Below are positions 29,828 through 38,192 of a stretch of 64,000 nt of DNA, piece by piece; the stretch's first letter is position 1; each line of letters opens with the position of its first letter. Source of the stretch: a virus; IMG/VR virus record IMGVR_UViG_3300020182_002648, positions 82,810-146,809 of that record; one strand, given 5' to 3'. The notes below the pieces were generated by a model. It was not told where the DNA came from and made no database searches. It saw only the letters and a program-made list of their open reading frames with translations. The translations under genes were made by a program, and so were the position numbers.

Positions 29828-29902
29828 GGTATACTACATTATTTATTTGAGGAGATTCGTTTTCCAATGGCCTTTTACTACATTTGTTGTTATAATATAG
29901 AT

Positions 29903-30274
29903 ATGTCAGATATTAAATCTAAAAAACTTGAATGTATCGTTACAGGGAGAAAGCTCATTGCCACCAAGGATTACTATGCTAGAAAGGTAGAAAAGGCTGG
30001 AAGTGAAGATGAATTGCATAGAACTTATATATGCAGGGAGGCGAAAAATTTACTCAAATCCGGCACCAGTGTCGACAAAGTACGTGACATTCTCGGATCC
30101 ACTGACACTGTGGCGCCTGAGATTGATCAGGATATTATCAACAGTATAGTTGATGACAGTACCAGAACCAGCTTGAGACGTATAAACAATATCGTGAGTA
30201 TCAGCAACATGATCAACAACAAGACAGATCCAGCTGTCAAAAAATACATTTTAAACATCACTAAGACTAATTAA
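29903..30274 (+). CDS. hypothetical protein
   Basis: Start moved to ATG 6 nt after TGGCCT-N17-TATAAT (29868..29896). Confidence 0.6.
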   Translation: MSDIKSKKLECIVTGRKLIATKDYYARKVEKAGSEDELHRTYICREAKNLLKSGTSVDKVRDILGSTDTVAPEIDQDIINSIVDDSTRTSLRRINNIVSISNMINNKTDPAVKKYILNITKTN

Positions 30275-30542: not shown

Positions 30543-30983
30543 ATGAGTGAAAAGGAATCATCAAATACACATGGCGCATGCAATATCGAAGAAAGGCTCG
30601 AAGGAGAGTTACATAAAATTAGGCGCGAAGTAGATGATTTATACGAGACGGTCTACAAAGGAAATGGAGTTCCATCGTTGGTTACACGCGCCAACAACAT
30701 GGAATCCAAACTCAGCGGGTTACGCGAAATAATGAACGACAAAATCTCTCATATATCATCAGAAAATGCACTCAGATTCGAGTCAATAAACCAGAAGATA
30801 GACAGCAAGTTCACTCGACTGGAAGGATGGATAGAGACAAAGTTATCAAGCGTTGAGATGATACTTCATGGTCTGTCTGAAGCGAAAAAAATCGACCGTA
30901 CTGGTGGTTGGCAATTGAAAGCTGCCTTGATCACCGCAACAGTCGCGATAGCTGGTATTGTAGCTTCATTATTATCTAAATAA
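30543..30983 (+). CDS. coiled-coil protein with C-terminal TM (holin-like)
   Basis: C-terminal hydrophobic helix; ATTAAGTA 5 nt upstream. Confidence 0.45.
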   Translation: MSEKESSNTHGACNIEERLEGELHKIRREVDDLYETVYKGNGVPSLVTRANNMESKLSGLREIMNDKISHISSENALRFESINQKIDSKFTRLEGWIETKLSSVEMILHGLSEAKKIDRTGGWQLKAALITATVAIAGIVASLLSK

Positions 30984-31021
30984 AACTTGACTTACACCGG
31001 TGTATACTATATCATTAGTAT

Positions 31022-31516
31022 ATGCACGAGCAATTATTAGAACTAGCTGACTCTCCACCGGACTTAGAGCAGTACACACCTTACGTTCAATATGGACCAC
31101 CAGTTTTAATTTATGGTGTCCCTATCAAGAATAGCTATGATCATGAGAGGTTGACTCTCAATGAGAGTTTAGAACCCAAAAGATTGAGAGTTGGTACTGA
31201 TTGCTTTTATGGCTTTATATTGCAACCGACACGATTGATGAGCAAGGTGTGTAGTGTTGCAACTAGTGTGCCGATGGATCACCCAGACTGTGTCAATATG
31301 TATAAGAAGAGACTCGCCATGTGTGAATTGACATGTGACAATTGTTGGGCTCACTTGAGTGAAAATATTTTTCCTATTGATGCGAATAATTTACCTCTCT
31401 TAGCTATAAATAGTCGGTACATGCGGATGGCGAACCCCATGCCACTACAATCAACTCGCACCAAACTTCCCTGGTTCACACAACACGCACAAATGAAAAT
31501 TTTTATCCTCAAATAA
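31022..31516 (+). CDS. hypothetical Cys-containing protein upstream of nrdA
   Basis: TTGACT-N17-TATCAT-N6-ATG (30987..31015); TAATG coupled to nrdA. Confidence 0.6.
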   Translation: MHEQLLELADSPPDLEQYTPYVQYGPPVLIYGVPIKNSYDHERLTLNESLEPKRLRVGTDCFYGFILQPTRLMSKVCSVATSVPMDHPDCVNMYKKRLAMCELTCDNCWAHLSENIFPIDANNLPLLAINSRYMRMANPMPLQSTRTKLPWFTQHAQMKIFILK

Positions 31517-33156
31517 TGAACGTAAAGAAACGTAACAACAAAACAGAAGAATTTAACGAACAGAAAATTCGCGCTTGTATCGAGAGATGCTGCGTCGATC
31601 CTGAAGGAAATGTATACCCCGGGGTCACAGCTGATACTATAGTGTTTAATGCTAAGATCAAACTGTATGATGGTATAACAACTCAAGAGATCGATGACAG
31701 TATAGTCAAGAGCGCTCGTAGCATGATTGAGCAAGAGCCTAACTACAAGTTTGTTGCTGCCAAGTTGTTGTTAAACACCATATACAAAGAAGTGTTCAAC
31801 ACTGGTGTTGATGGTGATGCGTTTGAATTACAATATCGTACCAGCTTCATTGTGAATCTCAAGAAACTGGTGAAAGCAGGTATCTTGCACAAAGACATGG
31901 CCAAGTTTGATCTTAACAAGTTGTCGAGTCATTTGAAAATTGAGAGAGACAACAATTTCGAATATTTAGGTATTCAGACTATCTATGATAGATATCTGCA
32001 TCATATTGATGAACAGAAAATGGAGGCTCCTCAGGCATTCTGGATGAGAGTCGCCATGGGACTGGCATTAGGTGAAGCTAAGGAAGATAGAGTCGAGTGG
32101 GCTTTGAAGTTCTATGATCAATTGAGCAGTTTCAATTGGATGAGCAGCACTCCTACATTGTTTAATAGTGGCGGGACGTTCAGTCAGCTGAGCAGTTGTT
32201 TCCTCAACACATTCGAAGACAGTATTGTGGGTATATTTGATGGCTTGTTACAAGAGGCTCTCAAGAACAAATATTCAGGTGGGTTGGGTATGGACATGAC
32301 CAACTTCAGAGCCACAAACAGTTATATCAAGGGTACAAATGGAGAGACACAAGGCGCTGTATACTTCTGGAAGCTGTATGGTGACATGCTCACTGCTGTC
32401 AATCAAGGTGGCAAGAGAAGAGGAGCCGGATGTGCTTACTTAGAGACTTGGCATGCTGATATTGAAGACTTTATTCAATTGCGGAAGAACACAGGAGATG
32501 AACGCAAGCGCGCTCATGATATGAACACAGCTAACTGGATTCCTGATCTGTTTCTCAAATGCGTCAATGAGGACAAGCCATGGTATTTGTTCACACCCAA
32601 TGAGACTCCTGATCTTCATGATTTATATGGTAAGGATTTTGAGAAGAGGTACTATGAGTATGTCAAGAAAGGTAAAGCAGGAGAGCTCAGAGTGTTTAGA
32701 GAGGTTCAAGCTAAGGATCTGTGGAAGAAAATGCTTAGATCTCTATTCGAGACTGGTCATCCATGGATCACTTTCAAAGACTCATGCAATCTGAGAAGCC
32801 CTCAACAACATGCTGGTGTGGTTCACAGCAGTAACCTTTGTGTAGTGGGTGATACAGAGATAGATTGTATCATAGATGGTCGTAACAGTGTTGTACGTAT
32901 GGATGAACTTGTTGATCTACATAACAGTGGTAAACGATGTGAGACAATGTCATATAACGTCGATACACAAGAGTATGAATATAAGCTAATAACTGATGCT
33001 GCTATGACGAACGACAACGCAGAGATCCTAGAGATTGAGGATTGTACCTCCGGTAAGGTCATCAGATGTACTGCTGATCACAAGATATACACAACCAACC
33101 GTGGGTATGTACCTGCCGGAGAGCTAACAGAGGAGGATATTTTAGTAATATCGTAA
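31516..33156 (+). CDS. nrdA: ribonucleotide reductase alpha, N-terminal fragment fused to split-intein N-half
   Basis: ATP cone, STPTLFN, QLSSCF, GGKRRGA, SSNL then CVVGDT intein start. Confidence 0.95.
   Translation: MNVKKRNNKTEEFNEQKIRACIERCCVDPEGNVYPGVTADTIVFNAKIKLYDGITTQEIDDSIVKSARSMIEQEPNYKFVAAKLLLNTIYKEVFNTGVDGDAFELQYRTSFIVNLKKLVKAGILHKDMAKFDLNKLSSHLKIERDNNFEYLGIQTIYDRYLHHIDEQKMEAPQAFWMRVAMGLALGEAKEDRVEWALKFYDQLSSFNWMSSTPTLFNSGGTFSQLSSCFLNTFEDSIVGIFDGLLQEALKNKYSGGLGMDMTNFRATNSYIKGTNGETQGAVYFWKLYGDMLTAVNQGGKRRGAGCAYLETWHADIEDFIQLRKNTGDERKRAHDMNTANWIPDLFLKCVNEDKPWYLFTPNETPDLHDLYGKDFEKRYYEYVKKGKAGELRVFREVQAKDLWKKMLRSLFETGHPWITFKDSCNLRSPQQHAGVVHSSNLCVVGDTEIDCIIDGRNSVVRMDELVDLHNSGKRCETMSYNVDTQEYEYKLITDAAMTNDNAEILEIEDCTSGKVIRCTADHKIYTTNRGYVPAGELTEEDILVIS
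32839..33153 (+). mobile_element. split intein N-half (105 aa)
   Basis: Block A CVVGDTEI, block B IRCTADHKIY, then stop. Confidence 0.92.
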
Positions 33157-33187
33157 AAGTATTCAGGGGTATCTCATAAGTAGTTAT

Positions 33188-33976
33188 ATGACGCTTAGAG
33201 ATACCCCTAAACACTATGTATATATGCATACAATAACTACAACAAACAAGTCCTATATAGGATACACATCAAAGAGTGTATCTGAGAGGTTGAAGGGTCA
33301 TTATAAGAATGCTTTCATTAATAACCTACAAGCCCATTGGCATAAAGCTTTAAGAAAGCACGGGATGGGAGCAGTTAAGACTAAGTTACTAGCAGAAGCT
33401 GATTCTAGAGAAGAGGGATTGAAACTTGAAATGGAATTTATCGAGAAATTTGATACTTATAAGAATGGTTATAATCAAACACTTGGAGGTACCGGAGGTG
33501 TTACTATAGACAGGGAACGCGATCCAGAGAAGTGGCAAGCATGGTATGACAAGAAGTTAAAACATGTACAAGGAGCAAACAATCCTAGTTATTCTGGATA
33601 CACTGATGACCAGCTGGTCGACATCGCGGTTGGTTTATATTTAGACAATAACAGATTGTTCACGTACGGTATATGGAAGAGACATTGCCAGTCGTCAAAG
33701 ACTCCACAGAGTTTCTCTAAAATGAGATTCAATGGAGAAGGGTTCAGAGGTTTCAAGAGAATGATCAAACTAGAATTGACAAATAGAGGTATTGATTATA
33801 CTGATGATAGTTTTACATACAAGAGAACTGCTGAGCATAATGCCAATTTGAGAAACAACAATATAGGAAAAAAGTGGTTCACAAACGGGACGAAGAGGTT
33901 AATGACATATCAAGATGACCCGCGGGTATCCGGTTGGAAGAACGGAAGGACTTTAAACAAGACAAACACAATTTAA
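33188..33976 (+). CDS. free-standing GIY-YIG homing endonuclease
   Basis: YVY...SYIGYT...RLKGH, GYN.T.GG; KWFTNG...GWKNGR C-terminus; CATAAGTA 5 nt upstream. Confidence 0.88.
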   Translation: MTLRDTPKHYVYMHTITTTNKSYIGYTSKSVSERLKGHYKNAFINNLQAHWHKALRKHGMGAVKTKLLAEADSREEGLKLEMEFIEKFDTYKNGYNQTLGGTGGVTIDRERDPEKWQAWYDKKLKHVQGANNPSYSGYTDDQLVDIAVGLYLDNNRLFTYGIWKRHCQSSKTPQSFSKMRFNGEGFRGFKRMIKLELTNRGIDYTDDSFTYKRTAEHNANLRNNNIGKKWFTNGTKRLMTYQDDPRVSGWKNGRTLNKTNTI

Positions 33977-33978
33977 TT

Positions 33979-34077
33979 ATGATAAAAATTACAAAACTTA
34001 AACAAAAGCAACCAGTGTATGATATCACTGTAAAAGATAATCACAATTTCTTCGGAAATAATATACTAGTACACAAC
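33979..34077 (+). mobile_element. split intein C-half (33 aa)
   Basis: Blocks F/G, terminal HN followed by +1 Cys. Confidence 0.92.
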
Positions 34078-35205
34078 TGCACCGAGATCACATTAAACAC
34101 AAAAGCGACTAGCTACACAAAAACTGGCAGAAGTGTCAAGGAGTATGGAGAGACCGCTGTTTGTAATTTAGGTAGTATCAATCTGAAGAATCATTTGATT
34201 GAAGTAGATGGAAAAGTAACGTTAGACTATGACAAGCTGAAGAACACAGTGACTGTTGGTATGAGGATGTTAGATAACGTTATTGATATCAACTTCTATC
34301 CGACTGAAGAGACTCGGAGGAGCAATACTAAGCACAGACCAGTAGGCATGGGTAGCATGGGCTGGCATGATATGTTCTTGTCAATGGGCATTGAATTCGA
34401 TAGCGATGAGGCTGTCAAGTTGTCAAGCGATGTGTATGAATACATTTCATACAATGCTATATCAGCTAGTAACGATCTAGCCAAAGCCAGAGGCAAGTAT
34501 GAATCATTCGAAGGATCAGCCTGGTCACAAGGTATATTACCGATGGATAGTTATCGTGACTTGATGAAGTTACGTACTGTGCGAGCTAGCAGTCGATCCA
34601 AACTCGATTGGGACTCTCTCAGAGCGTCTGTAGTTAAGCATGGCATGCGGAACAGCAACACGATGGCCATAGCACCAACAGCCACGATTAGCTCTATTGT
34701 AGGATCAAGTCCGAGTATCGAGCCATATTACAGTGTGTTGTATGTGTACAGTACATTGAGTGGTGAGTTTACCATGGTCAATGATCACTTCGTCAAGGAC
34801 ATGAAGAAGTTAGGATTATGGTCTCAGAGGCTAATCGATGATGTGAAACGTACAGATGGTGATATCTCCAAGTTGACTGATTGGAAAATTCCAGCAGAGA
34901 TTGTGTCCAAATACCGAACAGCGTTTCAGCAGGATCAGATGAAGATGGTTGAATCTGCTGCTGCAAGGCAAAAGTGGATTGACCAGGGGGTGAGTTTAAA
35001 TCTGTACAATGACAAGTCGAGTCTCAAGTTTTTGAATGATTTGTACATGCATGCATGGGAGAACGGATTGAAGACCACATACTATCTACGCAATCGTGCT
35101 GCCAGTACAATTGAGAAGAGCACAGTTGGGTCAACTCCAGAACCAGAAAATATCACAGCATGTAGTTTGAACAGTGCCCCTGGTGAATGTGAAGCTTGTC
35201 AGTAG
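33979..35205 (+). CDS. nrdA: split-intein C-half fused to ribonucleotide reductase alpha C-terminal fragment
   Basis: VYDITVKDNHNFFGNNILVHN|CTEI, CNLGSINL, APTATIS, KTTYYLR, CEACQ; start moved to 33979. Confidence 0.95.
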   Translation: MIKITKLKQKQPVYDITVKDNHNFFGNNILVHNCTEITLNTKATSYTKTGRSVKEYGETAVCNLGSINLKNHLIEVDGKVTLDYDKLKNTVTVGMRMLDNVIDINFYPTEETRRSNTKHRPVGMGSMGWHDMFLSMGIEFDSDEAVKLSSDVYEYISYNAISASNDLAKARGKYESFEGSAWSQGILPMDSYRDLMKLRTVRASSRSKLDWDSLRASVVKHGMRNSNTMAIAPTATISSIVGSSPSIEPYYSVLYVYSTLSGEFTMVNDHFVKDMKKLGLWSQRLIDDVKRTDGDISKLTDWKIPAEIVSKYRTAFQQDQMKMVESAAARQKWIDQGVSLNLYNDKSSLKFLNDLYMHAWENGLKTTYYLRNRAASTIEKSTVGSTPEPENITACSLNSAPGECEACQ

Positions 35206-35388
35206 CGTGAGAATAATATTTGCCTGGTTATTATATCAAGTTGGTGACATTATAAGTAGATTGTTACGGTATAGTATGTTCGCGTGGTTATATCCAGTAT
35301 ATAGCAAGTTGATGTTGTGGAGCTCTCATCTCGATAGTAGTGATGCTATATGGCATAAAAAAAATGACTGATATGTATAAATAATAGT

Positions 35389-35541
35389 ATGCCAGTAACA
35401 ACCACGACTACAAGCACTAGACCTGTACTAGAATCATCGCATGCAGGTGCGATGTTATTCGACACAGATACCAATCAACTCATCATATGGGATGGCACTA
35501 TATGGTATGTATTCGAACCAACGGCCACAATAGATCCTTGA
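35389..35541 (+). CDS. mini fibre-motif protein (50 aa, not in ORF track)
   Basis: TRP...GAMLFDTDTNQLIIWDGTIW; TATAAATA at 35376..35383. Confidence 0.65.
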   Translation: MPVTTTTTSTRPVLESSHAGAMLFDTDTNQLIIWDGTIWYVFEPTATIDP

Positions 35542-35548
35542 TTCCATA

Positions 35549-35854
35549 ATGAGTACAAAGATTATAGGAAAGAACGGGTCGATATGGTTAACTGGTAGAT
35601 CTGCATTTGATCTAGATCAAGGAGGAGTCATTACTTTCCCGTACCCGGATATAGTTGATATTGAGAGTGTCATCACCGCTGCAGCAGCAGAGGACGGTAT
35701 AATGGGATTCGGTACCGATACTAAGAACTTGTATATATCAAATAATGGAAGATGGTATAAGTTTGATTCTAGGTGGCATAAATGGAATACTCACGACCTA
35801 GATTGGAATGAGGAGAGCTTTGTTGCGATTGATTCTAATAGCACACCAATATAG
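35549..35854 (+). CDS. small fibre-motif protein
   Basis: DGIMGFGTDTKNLYISNNGRW. Confidence 0.55.
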   Translation: MSTKIIGKNGSIWLTGRSAFDLDQGGVITFPYPDIVDIESVITAAAAEDGIMGFGTDTKNLYISNNGRWYKFDSRWHKWNTHDLDWNEESFVAIDSNSTPI

Positions 35855-35927
35855 GCTGAATAACTTTCTATAATTAAGTAGTACTTGTTGCTATTTATCA
35901 GCAATAATATATACTAAGTATTGAAAT

Positions 35928-36923
35928 ATGAGTCAAATCTTAGGCAAAGAATCCGCAGGAGTAAATCAAATACTCCCACACAAAAACAAATGGGCTTGGG
36001 ACCTGTATCGTTCTGGAAAGAACAACAATTGGACACCTGAAGAAGTGCCTATGACCAAGGATGTACAGAACTGGAAGAAGAGTGATGTTATCTCTGATAA
36101 TGAAAGACTGCTCATCAAGAGATGTCTAGGGTTTTTTGCTGGTAGTGAGAGTTTGGTAGGTAACAACTTGTTCACATTGTTCAAGTATATAACGGATGCT
36201 GAATGTCGGCAGTACTTGAGCAGGCAGATGTATGAGGAGTGTTTACATAATGATACAATCGTGTATATTTGTGATTCACTTGATCTGGATATTACTGAGG
36301 TATATCAAGCATATGAAAATATTCCTAGCATCAAGGCTAAAGATGATTTTCTCATGAATGTAACAGGTGACTTGGTTAACAATCCAGTTGACACGAGCAC
36401 ACCTGAAGGAGTGAGAGAAGTTATCAAAGCAGCGTTCATATACTGGATTGTATGTGAGGGTACATTTTTCTTCAGCGGATTCGCCATGCTGCTGGCATTA
36501 TCGGACAAGATTCCTGGAATCGCTGAGCAAATTCAATACACATTGAGAGATGAGAGTATACACATCAAGTTTGGCACAATGCTTCTCAACAAGATCAGAG
36601 AACAACATCCAGACGTGTGGGACGCTAAGCTAGATGAAGAGTTGACAGGATATCTCAAGAGTGCTGTAGAGTTGGAGATAAACTACGCTAAAGACGCTCT
36701 CCCCTCAGGGATCCTAGGTTTAAACTCTGACATGTTCGTTGATTACATGCAACATATTGCAAATCGTAGATTGTCCGGATTAGGCATGGATTTCCGGTAT
36801 GAAAAGGACGAGAATCCGTTTCCTTGGTTGAGTGAAGTGATAGATTTGAGCAAACAAAAGAACTTCTTTGAATCAAAGGTTACAGAGTATCAAAACTCTG
36901 GTGCTCTCGACGACGACTTTTAG
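35928..36923 (+). CDS. nrdB: ribonucleotide reductase beta subunit, class Ic-type (Mn/Fe)
   Basis: WTPEEV, FFAGSESLVGNN, EECLHNDTI, EGTFFFSGF, DESIH, KNFFESKVTEY. Confidence 0.93.
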   Translation: MSQILGKESAGVNQILPHKNKWAWDLYRSGKNNNWTPEEVPMTKDVQNWKKSDVISDNERLLIKRCLGFFAGSESLVGNNLFTLFKYITDAECRQYLSRQMYEECLHNDTIVYICDSLDLDITEVYQAYENIPSIKAKDDFLMNVTGDLVNNPVDTSTPEGVREVIKAAFIYWIVCEGTFFFSGFAMLLALSDKIPGIAEQIQYTLRDESIHIKFGTMLLNKIREQHPDVWDAKLDEELTGYLKSAVELEINYAKDALPSGILGLNSDMFVDYMQHIANRRLSGLGMDFRYEKDENPFPWLSEVIDLSKQKNFFESKVTEYQNSGALDDDF

Positions 36924-36974: not shown

Positions 36975-38192
36975 ATGATCGAGAAAATAAAGAATATACT
37001 TAAATTTAAAAATGATGTAAGCCTGCCTGACATAGAGGTCAACGAGGTGTCACAGACTTTATCTCAATCCATTGGATGGGGATTAACACAAAACAACATA
37101 CCACGGGCTTGGACAGAGTCTAAGGGCAAAGGAGTTGTCGTGGCTGTGATTGACACAGGCATGCCCATTCATCCAGATATAGGGGACAATGCTATTGAAG
37201 GTAAATCCTTCATACCTGGTGAGAACATATATGACAACCATGGACATCAAACTCATTGCGTTGGTATCATATGTGCCAAGAATAATGAGTTTGGAATGGT
37301 CGGAGTTGCTCCGGAATCTAAATGTGTTTGTATCAAGGGATTGAGCAACAGTGGCAGTGGCAGTTCTAAAGGAATCGCAGATGCACTAGATTATTGTTTG
37401 GAAATCAAGCCGGATATCGTGAGCATGAGTCTAGGTAGTTCCAGAGCAGACCCAGCCATGCATGAGGCTATCAAGCGACTGGTCAAGGCTGGTATAGTTG
37501 TAGTATGCGCCGCTGGCAATAGCGCTGCAGCTGGTGTCAATTATCCTGGAGCATTTCCAGAGACTATAGCTATTGGTTCACATGAAGTTGATGGTAAGCT
37601 GTCATGGTTTAGTAGTGTAGGTACTCAAGTCGATTGGGCTGCACCTGGAGGTAAAATATACAGCACGTACACCAAAGGACGATATGCAGAGCTGAGCGGA
37701 ACTTCAATGGCATGTCCATTTGTAGCTGGTGTTCTAGCTCTATTGATATCTAAATGGAAGAAGGACGGTAGAGAATACACTGTGGATGATGTTTGGTTGT
37801 CGTTACTTTCCAATACTATAGACAAGTTTACACCTGGTGAAGACAATCACTTTGGTAATGGCATCATTGATGTGTTGTCTCTTTTAGATGCTGGGCCGGA
37901 ACCTGAACCAACACCGGAACCTGAACCAACACCGGAACCAACACCGGAACCAACACCGGAACCAACACCGGAACCTGAACCAACACCGGAACCAAAACCC
38001 GGGGTATGGATGAGACAACGGACATGGGTTACTATTGGGTTGTTTTTACTAACCACAATAGGCATACTGTCACTAATAAATCACCACATGTCTATTGACG
38101 TTCTAGAAGAGATCGATTGGGATCAACGACTAGAGGAGGACTTGGAGAGCAGAGGACTAACGGAAGAGCAATGGCGCTCTATGAGGCGTTAA
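36975..38192 (+). CDS. subtilisin-like S8 protease with Pro-Glu-Pro-Thr linker and C-terminal TM anchor
   Basis: VIDTG, HGHQTHCVG, AAGN, GTSMACP; ATTAAATA 5 nt upstream. Confidence 0.92.
   Translation: MIEKIKNILKFKNDVSLPDIEVNEVSQTLSQSIGWGLTQNNIPRAWTESKGKGVVVAVIDTGMPIHPDIGDNAIEGKSFIPGENIYDNHGHQTHCVGIICAKNNEFGMVGVAPESKCVCIKGLSNSGSGSSKGIADALDYCLEIKPDIVSMSLGSSRADPAMHEAIKRLVKAGIVVVCAAGNSAAAGVNYPGAFPETIAIGSHEVDGKLSWFSSVGTQVDWAAPGGKIYSTYTKGRYAELSGTSMACPFVAGVLALLISKWKKDGREYTVDDVWLSLLSNTIDKFTPGEDNHFGNGIIDVLSLLDAGPEPEPTPEPEPTPEPTPEPTPEPTPEPEPTPEPKPGVWMRQRTWVTIGLFLLTTIGILSLINHHMSIDVLEEIDWDQRLEEDLESRGLTEEQWRSMRR
37896..37994 (+). repeat. 12/18-bp tandem repeat encoding PEPT/PEPEPT
   Basis: Repeated ccggaacc(tgaacc)aaca units. 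Confidence 0.9.

Follow-up and report, generated by a model that had tools for sequence, protein, structure and literature searches.

A split intein and a free-standing GIY-YIG endonuclease gene interrupt a phage nrdA at the radical-cysteine codon

Within the analyzed window, a stretch of 64,000 nucleotides of viral DNA, the class I ribonucleotide reductase (RNR) gene nrdA was found in two pieces with an intervening cassette (31516-35205), and the coordinates, open reading frames (ORFs), and lengths agreed with those of the initial annotation. The source phage is uncultured and T4-like, and it is not close to any cultured phage. No match was obtained when the whole locus was compared by megablast with 50,697 phage records. 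The best cultured NrdA matches came from Acinetobacter and Pseudomonas phages (44–46%), and the protein was not particularly cyanophage-like. The following features were identified at the locus.

31516-33156, plus strand: ORF encoding NrdA-N and IntN, 546 aa; ...HSSNL is followed by CVVGDT...TADH...ILVIS and a stop
31516-32838, plus strand: nrdA N-extein of 441 aa, covering the ATP cone, the all-alpha domain, and the beginning of the barrel; its last residues are ...HAGVVHSSNL
32839-33156, plus strand: IntN, 105 aa (32839-33153) plus TAA stop
33165-33208, plus strand: RNA hairpin with an outer stem of 11 bp (AGGGGTATCTC/GAGATACCCCT) and further pairs inside it
33188-33976, plus strand: free-standing GIY-YIG homing endonuclease gene, 262 aa
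33979-35205, plus strand: ORF encoding IntC and NrdA-C, 408 aa
33979-34077, plus strand: IntC, 33 aa, MIKITK...VYDITVKDNHNFFGNNILVHN; blocks F and G, terminal His-Asn
34078-35205, plus strand: nrdA C-extein, 375 aa; its first residue is the thiyl-radical Cys (CTEI...); PF02867 positions 204-523
35928-36923, plus strand: nrdB, encoding the predicted small-subunit partner of spliced NrdA; PF00268, E 2e-71

The N-extein was delimited with the Pfam profiles PF03477, PF00317, and PF02867 (positions 1-213), and the RNR barrel profile was broken at about position 204-213. The cassette itself comprised 1239 bp (32839-34077), and its deletion in silico produced the sequence ...HSSNL/CTEI.... According to the ORF list, the endonuclease was encoded in a frame different from those of the intein halves, and no terminator-like site with a strong stem was present between the three ORFs. 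A free-standing GIY-YIG gene between the halves, as originally described, was borne out by its length, its separate frame, and a match to the GIY-YIG profile PF01541 above the cut-off (26.9 versus 22.6 bits).

The initial annotation had also placed the split intein immediately before the thiyl-radical cysteine of the NLCxE finger loop, and this position was confirmed in two ways. In the alignment with E. coli R1, the +1 Cys (residue 34 of the IntC and NrdA-C ORF) corresponded to Cys439, and intein-less alleles read SSNL/CTEI across the insertion point. In 78 of 80 related phage loci, the exteins abutted directly, with HAGVVHSSNL/CTEI uninterrupted at the exact junction, so the junction is not a product of chance. 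In an exhaustive protein search, split inteins at the same RNR cysteine formed at least 95 distinct clusters, and an N[LI]/C junction was found in 71 split homologue clusters.

Equivalents of C225, N437, C439, E441, C462, the YY pair, and the C-terminal Cys pair were all present in the two NrdA halves. The motifs SSCFL, NL-C-TE, AVCNLG, TTYYLR, and CEACQ were read directly from the ORFs, as were the YY pair and the C-terminal CxxC tail of the C-extein, C439 alone being placed by a printed alignment. The exteins were 60–81% identical to those of uninterrupted relatives.

Both halves of the intein carried the residues associated with splicing. In IntN, the block A nucleophile Cys1 (CVVGDT) was invariant among 135 aligned homologues, and in block B (T78-A-D-H81, TxxH) the Thr and His were conserved in 99% and 100% of these homologues, respectively. 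IntC contained blocks F and G (VYDITV...NNILVHN), with the penultimate His and terminal Asn followed by the +1 Cys, and it aligned with the C-termini of the solved inteins gp41-1 and NrdJ-1 and of DnaB inteins. The Pfam Intein_splicing profile PF14890 was divided between the two ORFs, positions 5-94 matching the N ORF and positions 124-155 the C ORF (E 9e-7 and 4e-7, respectively). The half scores of 29.3 and 30.4 bits lay under the whole-domain gathering threshold of 35.8 bits, as expected because each match represents half a domain. The intein relationship was settled by the homology of IntN to the NrdJ-1 intein 8ubs (E 3e-17). Net charges were −13 for IntN and +3 for IntC, the latter having five Lys residues, four of them within the first 10 residues; the earlier description of an acidic IntN and a Lys-rich IntC was thus correct.

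All three kinds of stop codon, more than 30 in total, occurred in the frame joining IntN to IntC. The intein is therefore truly split, with its halves on separate polypeptides, and a contiguous intein produced by readthrough or an alternative genetic code was ruled out. A sister allele (P0001) showed the same architecture, with 87% identity in IntN and about 83–84% in the N-extein; IntN thus varies no more than the extein, a sign that the intein is under purifying selection. The probable ATG start of IntC (33979) lies 2 nt past the endonuclease stop, and an in-frame TTG at 33934 is an alternative that would create a 43-bp overlap with the 3′ end of the endonuclease gene in place of the 2-nt gap. 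The same M-x-K-I start of IntC was observed in the related locus L003 and in Klebsiella phage KP13-7, and the relatives favour the ATG. No Shine-Dalgarno sequence was visible before the candidate IntC starts, and RNA folding left the IntC leader unstructured.

The endonuclease matched the homing endonuclease family phrog_314 (E 2e-19), and a protein search yielded 44 homologues conserved over the full length. Its layout consisted of an I-TevI-like catalytic domain (about residues 8-100) followed by a conserved C-terminal region, which probably binds DNA; no solved structure matched this region. The motifs YVY and YIG were present, and among 26 family members E81 and N96 were invariant and R34 nearly invariant; from their position, the likely catalytic residues are among these. 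An AF2 model (pLDDT 84) gave its best fold match to 1mk0, the catalytic domain of I-TevI. No PDB match was returned by sequence search at E ≤ 1, I-TevI being recovered by fold search only, and a pattern-based search of IMG/VR found no close relatives of the endonuclease. Similarity to I-TevI of the T4 td intron (1mk0, 1ln0) extended to the catalytic fold (TM 0.85 on the target, rmsd 1.8–2.4 Å) and to the order of the two parts, with the catalytic domain first and the C-terminal region second. However, the identity was only 22–24%, and the gene described here is free-standing between intein halves, whereas I-TevI is intron-encoded.

The start codon of the endonuclease gene (33188) was enclosed by a hairpin with a folding energy of −25.6 kcal/mol (z −6.1), and none of 200 shuffled sequences was as stable. 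Comparable hairpins occurred in KP13-7 and L003, and Dassa et al. 2009 (PMC2677866) reported one at the 5′ end of this gene in 15 of 16 loci. Such a structure probably holds down translation of the endonuclease. The T4 late-promoter motif TATAAATA was absent from the hairpin, its nearest copies being at 31405 and 35376. The hairpin of L003 does contain the T4 late-promoter motif.

Two same-strand nrdA ORFs, one ending and the other beginning with an intein half, with a free-standing endonuclease gene between them, correspond to what Dassa et al. 2009 (PMC2677866) described as a ‘fractured gene’. That study described seven NrdA loci (NrdA-1 to NrdA-7) with the same insertion point and the same charge pattern, and in its fractured genes the 3′ end of the endonuclease gene overlapped the IntC ORF by 6–69 bp. 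One of these inteins, NrdA-2, splices both in cis (75–98%) and in trans (Pinto et al. 2020, PMC7090010). The present intein resembled NrdA-2 in host gene, in the SNL/C site N-terminal to the thiyl-radical Cys, in the canonical split position, in a negative IntN of about 105 aa and a positive IntC of 33 aa, and in clearly homologous sequences. This locus, NrdA-2, and the loci of Dassa et al. also share an endonuclease gene that stands free between the halves, with a hairpin at its 5′ end. In contrast, IntN was only ~50% identical to that of NrdA-2 (53 of 106 positions, counted by eye) and IntC 70% (23 of 33), the NrdA-2 sequence being taken from OCR text of Supplementary Table 3 of Pinto 2020 with one Val restored from the DNA column. 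The +2 extein residue was Thr instead of the Asn of NrdA-2, and the endonuclease stop did not overlap the ATG-started IntC.

Among solved structures, NrdJ-1 (8ubs, 9omb) was the best match for IntN, with about 40% identity, and it also matched IntC; it has the same charge polarity and likewise comes from a fractured RNR gene. Its host, however, is the class II NrdJ, and its insertion point follows the radical Cys, one residue closer to the C-terminus (PMC2677866). The cultured Klebsiella phage KP13-7 (Alcyoneusvirus, OP617745) shows the same order of elements in its nrdA region, namely IntN (44% identity), a GIY-YIG gene (38%), and IntC (62%), with a strong hairpin ahead of the endonuclease gene. 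It differed in the junction (QSNLC/C...HN/CEID), which lies one residue downstream as in NrdJ-1, and in two further interruptions of nrdA, the pieces being annotated as hypothetical proteins. In Aeromonas phage Aeh1 (nrdA-a/mobE/nrdA-b; Friedrich et al. 2007; Crona et al. 2011, PMC3045599), a T4-like nrdA is also split by a free-standing homing endonuclease gene with hairpin-controlled translation. That endonuclease is of the HNH type, no intein is present, and the fragments assemble non-covalently, whereas a complete split intein was found here.

From the anatomy, homology, exact insertion point, and conservation described above, the locus is very probably a mobile cassette in a class I nrdA, made up of a class 1 split intein and an I-TevI-type GIY-YIG gene, which would act through trans-splicing and homing. 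Translation would yield NrdA-N-IntN (546 aa) and, as a second polypeptide, IntC-NrdA-C (408 aa). IntN, which is acidic, and IntC, which is basic, would associate, fold into a HINT domain, and carry out protein trans-splicing, in which Cys1 would form the thioester, the +1 Cys, later the radical Cys, would attack it, and the terminal Asn would cyclise. This would give an NrdA of 816 aa whose finger loop has the native sequence ...SSNL-CTEI... and which would then partner NrdB. The endonuclease, its translation probably kept low by the start-codon hairpin, probably cuts the intein-less nrdA of co-infecting relatives near the NLC codons, a target suggested by its position; as a proposal, such a cut would lead to the whole cassette being copied in by repair. 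Judged by sequence, the intein is probably functional, and the dependence of RNR activity on trans-splicing, as suggested at the outset, is the best-supported reading.

Three other explanations were weighed against this proposal. The intein halves might no longer splice and might only dock the NrdA fragments non-covalently, either like dead-intein clasps or like the ‘gene in pieces’ of Aeh1, where a fractured NrdA does assemble in this manner (PMC3045599; described in PMC2677866). This is quite improbable: every splicing residue is present and conserved, an unspliced complex would keep ~138 intein residues attached directly to the radical Cys, at the finger-loop tip, and the homologous NrdA-2 does splice.

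A decaying nrdA, inactivated by endonuclease invasion in a phage that uses the host RNR, appeared more improbable still. Homing endonuclease insertions are able to inactivate genes, and the record is ~65% complete, so there is room for a second RNR; however, both halves are full-length open frames with all catalytic residues and an intact nrdB adjacent, the sister allele shows mostly conservative changes over 546 aa, and the exteins have the identity to uninterrupted relatives given above.

Removal of the interruption at the RNA level, by a group I intron with a GIY-YIG gene or by RNA trans-splicing, has a practically negligible probability: GIY-YIG genes are frequent in group I introns of phage nrd genes and are associated with such introns in T4 td, nrdB, and sunY, but this reading was rejected because the Rfam scan of 31000-36000 showed no group I or II intron (no family at E ≤ 1 besides one chance sRNA match of 19.5 bits), and an intron would not explain the in-frame homologous intein halves encoded on both flanks of the endonuclease.

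With the trans-splicing cassette as the preferred reading, its relation to described inteins can be assessed. The initial annotation was right that such a layout had already been reported for phages in marine metagenomes (Dassa et al. 2009, PMC2677866), but its hint of novelty was overstated, since the same site and charge pattern occur in the seven NrdA loci of that study and the homologous NrdA-2 has already been shown to splice (PMC7090010). Orthogonality towards NrdA-2 is doubtful on sequence grounds and cannot be assumed, because IntC is 70% identical. It is rather unlikely, though worth stating, that the halves form a fast trans-splicing pair without cross-reaction with NrdA-2, NrdJ-1, and gp41-1, or that the redox state of the infected cell controls splicing and, with it, RNR activation. 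Such control is conceivable because both splicing nucleophiles are Cys, the +1 Cys being the residue that later carries the thiyl radical, and a non-cross-reacting pair, if real, would be an extra orthogonal ligation tool.

The arrangement is common and was described in 2009, and the locus is a real addition to the NrdA split-intein family. For practical use it offers no more than a possible additional split intein for ligating proteins, with about 50% divergence from the single family member that has been assayed. The locus opens no new question; it is a complete and well-delimited natural example, with both exteins, both intein halves, the endonuclease, and its putative regulatory hairpin, and it confirms the RNR radical-cysteine codon as the favoured landing site of such cassettes.

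The nrdA locus of the window was found to consist of three consecutive open reading frames, with coordinates and lengths as given in the initial annotation, which the ORF listing and Pfam showed to be correct:

31516-33156, + strand: NrdA-N and the N-terminal intein half (IntN), 546 aa; ...HAGVVHSSNL, then CVVGDTEID...CTADHKIYTTNRGYVPAGELTEEDILVIS and a TAA stop
33188-33976, + strand: GIY-YIG gene, 262 aa, in a frame different from that of the preceding ORF
to 35205, + strand: the C-terminal intein half (IntC) and NrdA-C; contains MIKITKLKQKQPVYDITVKDNHNFFGNNILVHN, then CTEITLNTKA...

Pfam placed the ATP cone, the RNR all-alpha domain, the RNR barrel (positions 1-213) and Intein_splicing (positions 5-94) in the first ORF, a GIY-YIG domain scoring above the cut-off in the second, and Intein_splicing (positions 124-155) with the RNR barrel (positions 204-523) in the third. 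On reading of the ORFs, NrdA catalytic residues were retained in both halves (SSCFL, NL-C-TE, AVCNLG, TTYYLR and the C-terminal CEACQ). Gene nrdB follows from 35928. A contiguous intein produced by readthrough or an alternative code was ruled out, as TAA, TAG and TGA together occur more than 30 times in the frame linking IntN and IntC; the intein is therefore truly split. No intron families were found at the locus.

The insertion point was defined with relatives of the N-extein. IMG/VR was scanned, and five segments were placed by tblastn in the 80 loci returned. In 78, the N-extein match stopped exactly one base ahead of the C-extein match; of the remaining two, one stops before the C-extein, and the other, L003 (IMGVR_UViG_3300047548_001509), has a related cassette inserted elsewhere. 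Uninterrupted junctions read HAGVVHSSNL-CTEI(L/T)LHTKA, and the window reads alike once 32839-34077 is deleted. The abutting exteins and matching junctions thus identify the cassette as a precise 1239-bp insertion, and they bear out the SSNL-C-TEI finger-loop motif expected on intein removal. Judged from sequence, protein splicing would regenerate the native finger loop. Alignments to E. coli R1 by phmmer set the first residue of the C-extein, a Cys at position 34 of the C-terminal ORF, opposite residue 439, the thiyl-radical cysteine, so the +1 Cys, the predicted nucleophile, is this residue, as first proposed.

Cys1, T78-x-x-H81, the block F/G sequence, the terminal His-Asn and Cys+1 were all found in the intein. 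Among 135 aligned homologous N-inteins, C1 and H81 were invariant and T78 was 99% conserved. IntC aligned with the C-terminal ends of several solved inteins, gp41-1 and NrdJ-1 among them. A sister allele of the first ORF (P0001) has the same 546-aa architecture, with 84% identity overall and 87% in the intein, which indicates that the intein is constrained at least as much as the enzyme. The described charge difference was confirmed, with a net charge of -13 for IntN and +3 for IntC (4 Lys among its first ten residues); the same polarity has been reported for NrdA-2, NrdJ-1 and IMPDH-1 (PMC2677866).

The fractured-gene layout was, as had been stated, already known: Dassa et al. 2009 (PMC2677866) described 26 such loci, NrdA-1 to NrdA-7 among them. 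Alignment to known split inteins, suggested earlier as a check, matched IntN to the solved NrdJ-1 intein (E 3e-17); identity to NrdA-2 (Supplementary Table 3, Pinto et al. 2020, PMC7090010) was ~53/106 for IntN, counted by eye, and 23/33 for IntC. NrdA-2 has SNL/CNE flanks, splices in cis at 75-98% and in trans in vitro, and is orthogonal to eleven other inteins (Pinto et al. 2020, PMC7090010). Since IntC identity is 70%, orthogonality of the window intein towards NrdA-2 appears doubtful. When 1.84 billion cluster representatives were searched exhaustively with HMMER, 870 IntN relatives passed E<=1e-3, all of them with 54% identity or less. Among the 150 of these relatives that were listed, plus four more, 71 are N-halves that end their ORF and have the junction N[LI]-C, and 24 have NP-C; no fewer than 95 separate clusters at 50% identity thus carry a split intein at the same RNR cysteine.

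PHROGs assigned the 262-aa GIY-YIG protein as a homing endonuclease. Conservation among its 44 metagenomic homologues of similar length extends from end to end: E81 and N96 are invariant, R34 is almost so, and the C-terminal region has the motifs NPxYSGYTD and PxSFSKxRFNGEG. In an AlphaFold model built from the homologue alignment (pLDDT 84), the N-terminal domain matched the catalytic domain of I-TevI on superposition (1mk0; target TM 0.85); the C-terminal part, without a match among solved structures, is presumably the DNA-binding region.

A hairpin surrounds the endonuclease start codon at 33188 (-25.6 kcal/mol, z -6.1). Comparable hairpins precede the endonuclease genes of Klebsiella phage KP13-7 (z -5.6) and L003 (TATAAATA in the loop), and the window hairpin fits the translational-control hairpins of 15/16 loci in Dassa et al. 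(PMC2677866). The IntC leader is A-rich and without structure, so independent initiation would be possible; ATG 33979 was favoured over TTG 33934 because the IntC of relatives starts at the corresponding Met. In endonuclease homologues P0155, P0156 and several rows of the homologue alignment (A1), the start was called at the internal Met of ...YVYMHT..., and the first (GIY) strand is thereby lost; the upstream ATG may have been missed owing to the hairpin around the true start.

Other nrdA genes were fractured differently. In the syntenic L003 (3930-7596), the split intein (39% identical in IntN, 61% in IntC) lies 24 codons upstream, around a different GIY-YIG gene (243 aa) starting within its hairpin. 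Its junction, ...LFETGGPW-C...IHN-CTFKDAS..., places the +1 Cys where PWITFKD has Ile and leaves the NLC site intact; the arrangement suggests a related intein in an ectopic position. In KP13-7, a cultured jumbo phage (OP617745 30877-36407; L001:2029-7559), nrdA is in at least four pieces, the middle ones annotated as hypothetical proteins. The breaks are an HNH gene after ...SCSQG, apparently without an intein; a homologous cassette of split intein and GIY-YIG gene at QSNLC-C, one residue downstream of the window's site; and a second split intein (...MPGE-CQSW..., ...IVSHN-TSSQ) around an HNH gene.

The window ends the 146,809-bp IMG/VR record (82810-146809; estimated completeness 65%), which has a capsid gene of the T4 gp23 type (E 2e-96) and only one intein, that of nrdA, and one GIY-YIG gene. 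Among cultured phages, no NrdA exceeds 46% identity to that of the record. By motif reading, NrdB (35928-36923) has Ile at the position of E. coli R2 radical Tyr122 (EECLHNDTI) and Glu in GSE versus the first Asp ligand of class Ia, and it may thus belong to the tyrosine-less R2 proteins, class Ic-like or otherwise. Directly downstream (36975-38192) lies a subtilisin-like protease (phrog_3677, E 2e-77) that has a hydrophobic segment at its C-terminal end and a long linker of (T/E)PEP repeats. Neither Pfam nor PHROG gave a match to the three ORFs upstream of nrdA (31022-31516, 29867-30274 and 30543-30983). In L003, a counterpart of the 29867 ORF (MADRKCTCPITGQSL...) likewise precedes nrdA, so the neighbourhood is conserved.

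The initial observation and its interpretation stand. From homology, we infer splicing, homing and hairpin control at this locus, which is a textbook fractured gene whose intein adds a new member, of moderate divergence, to the NrdA split-intein family.
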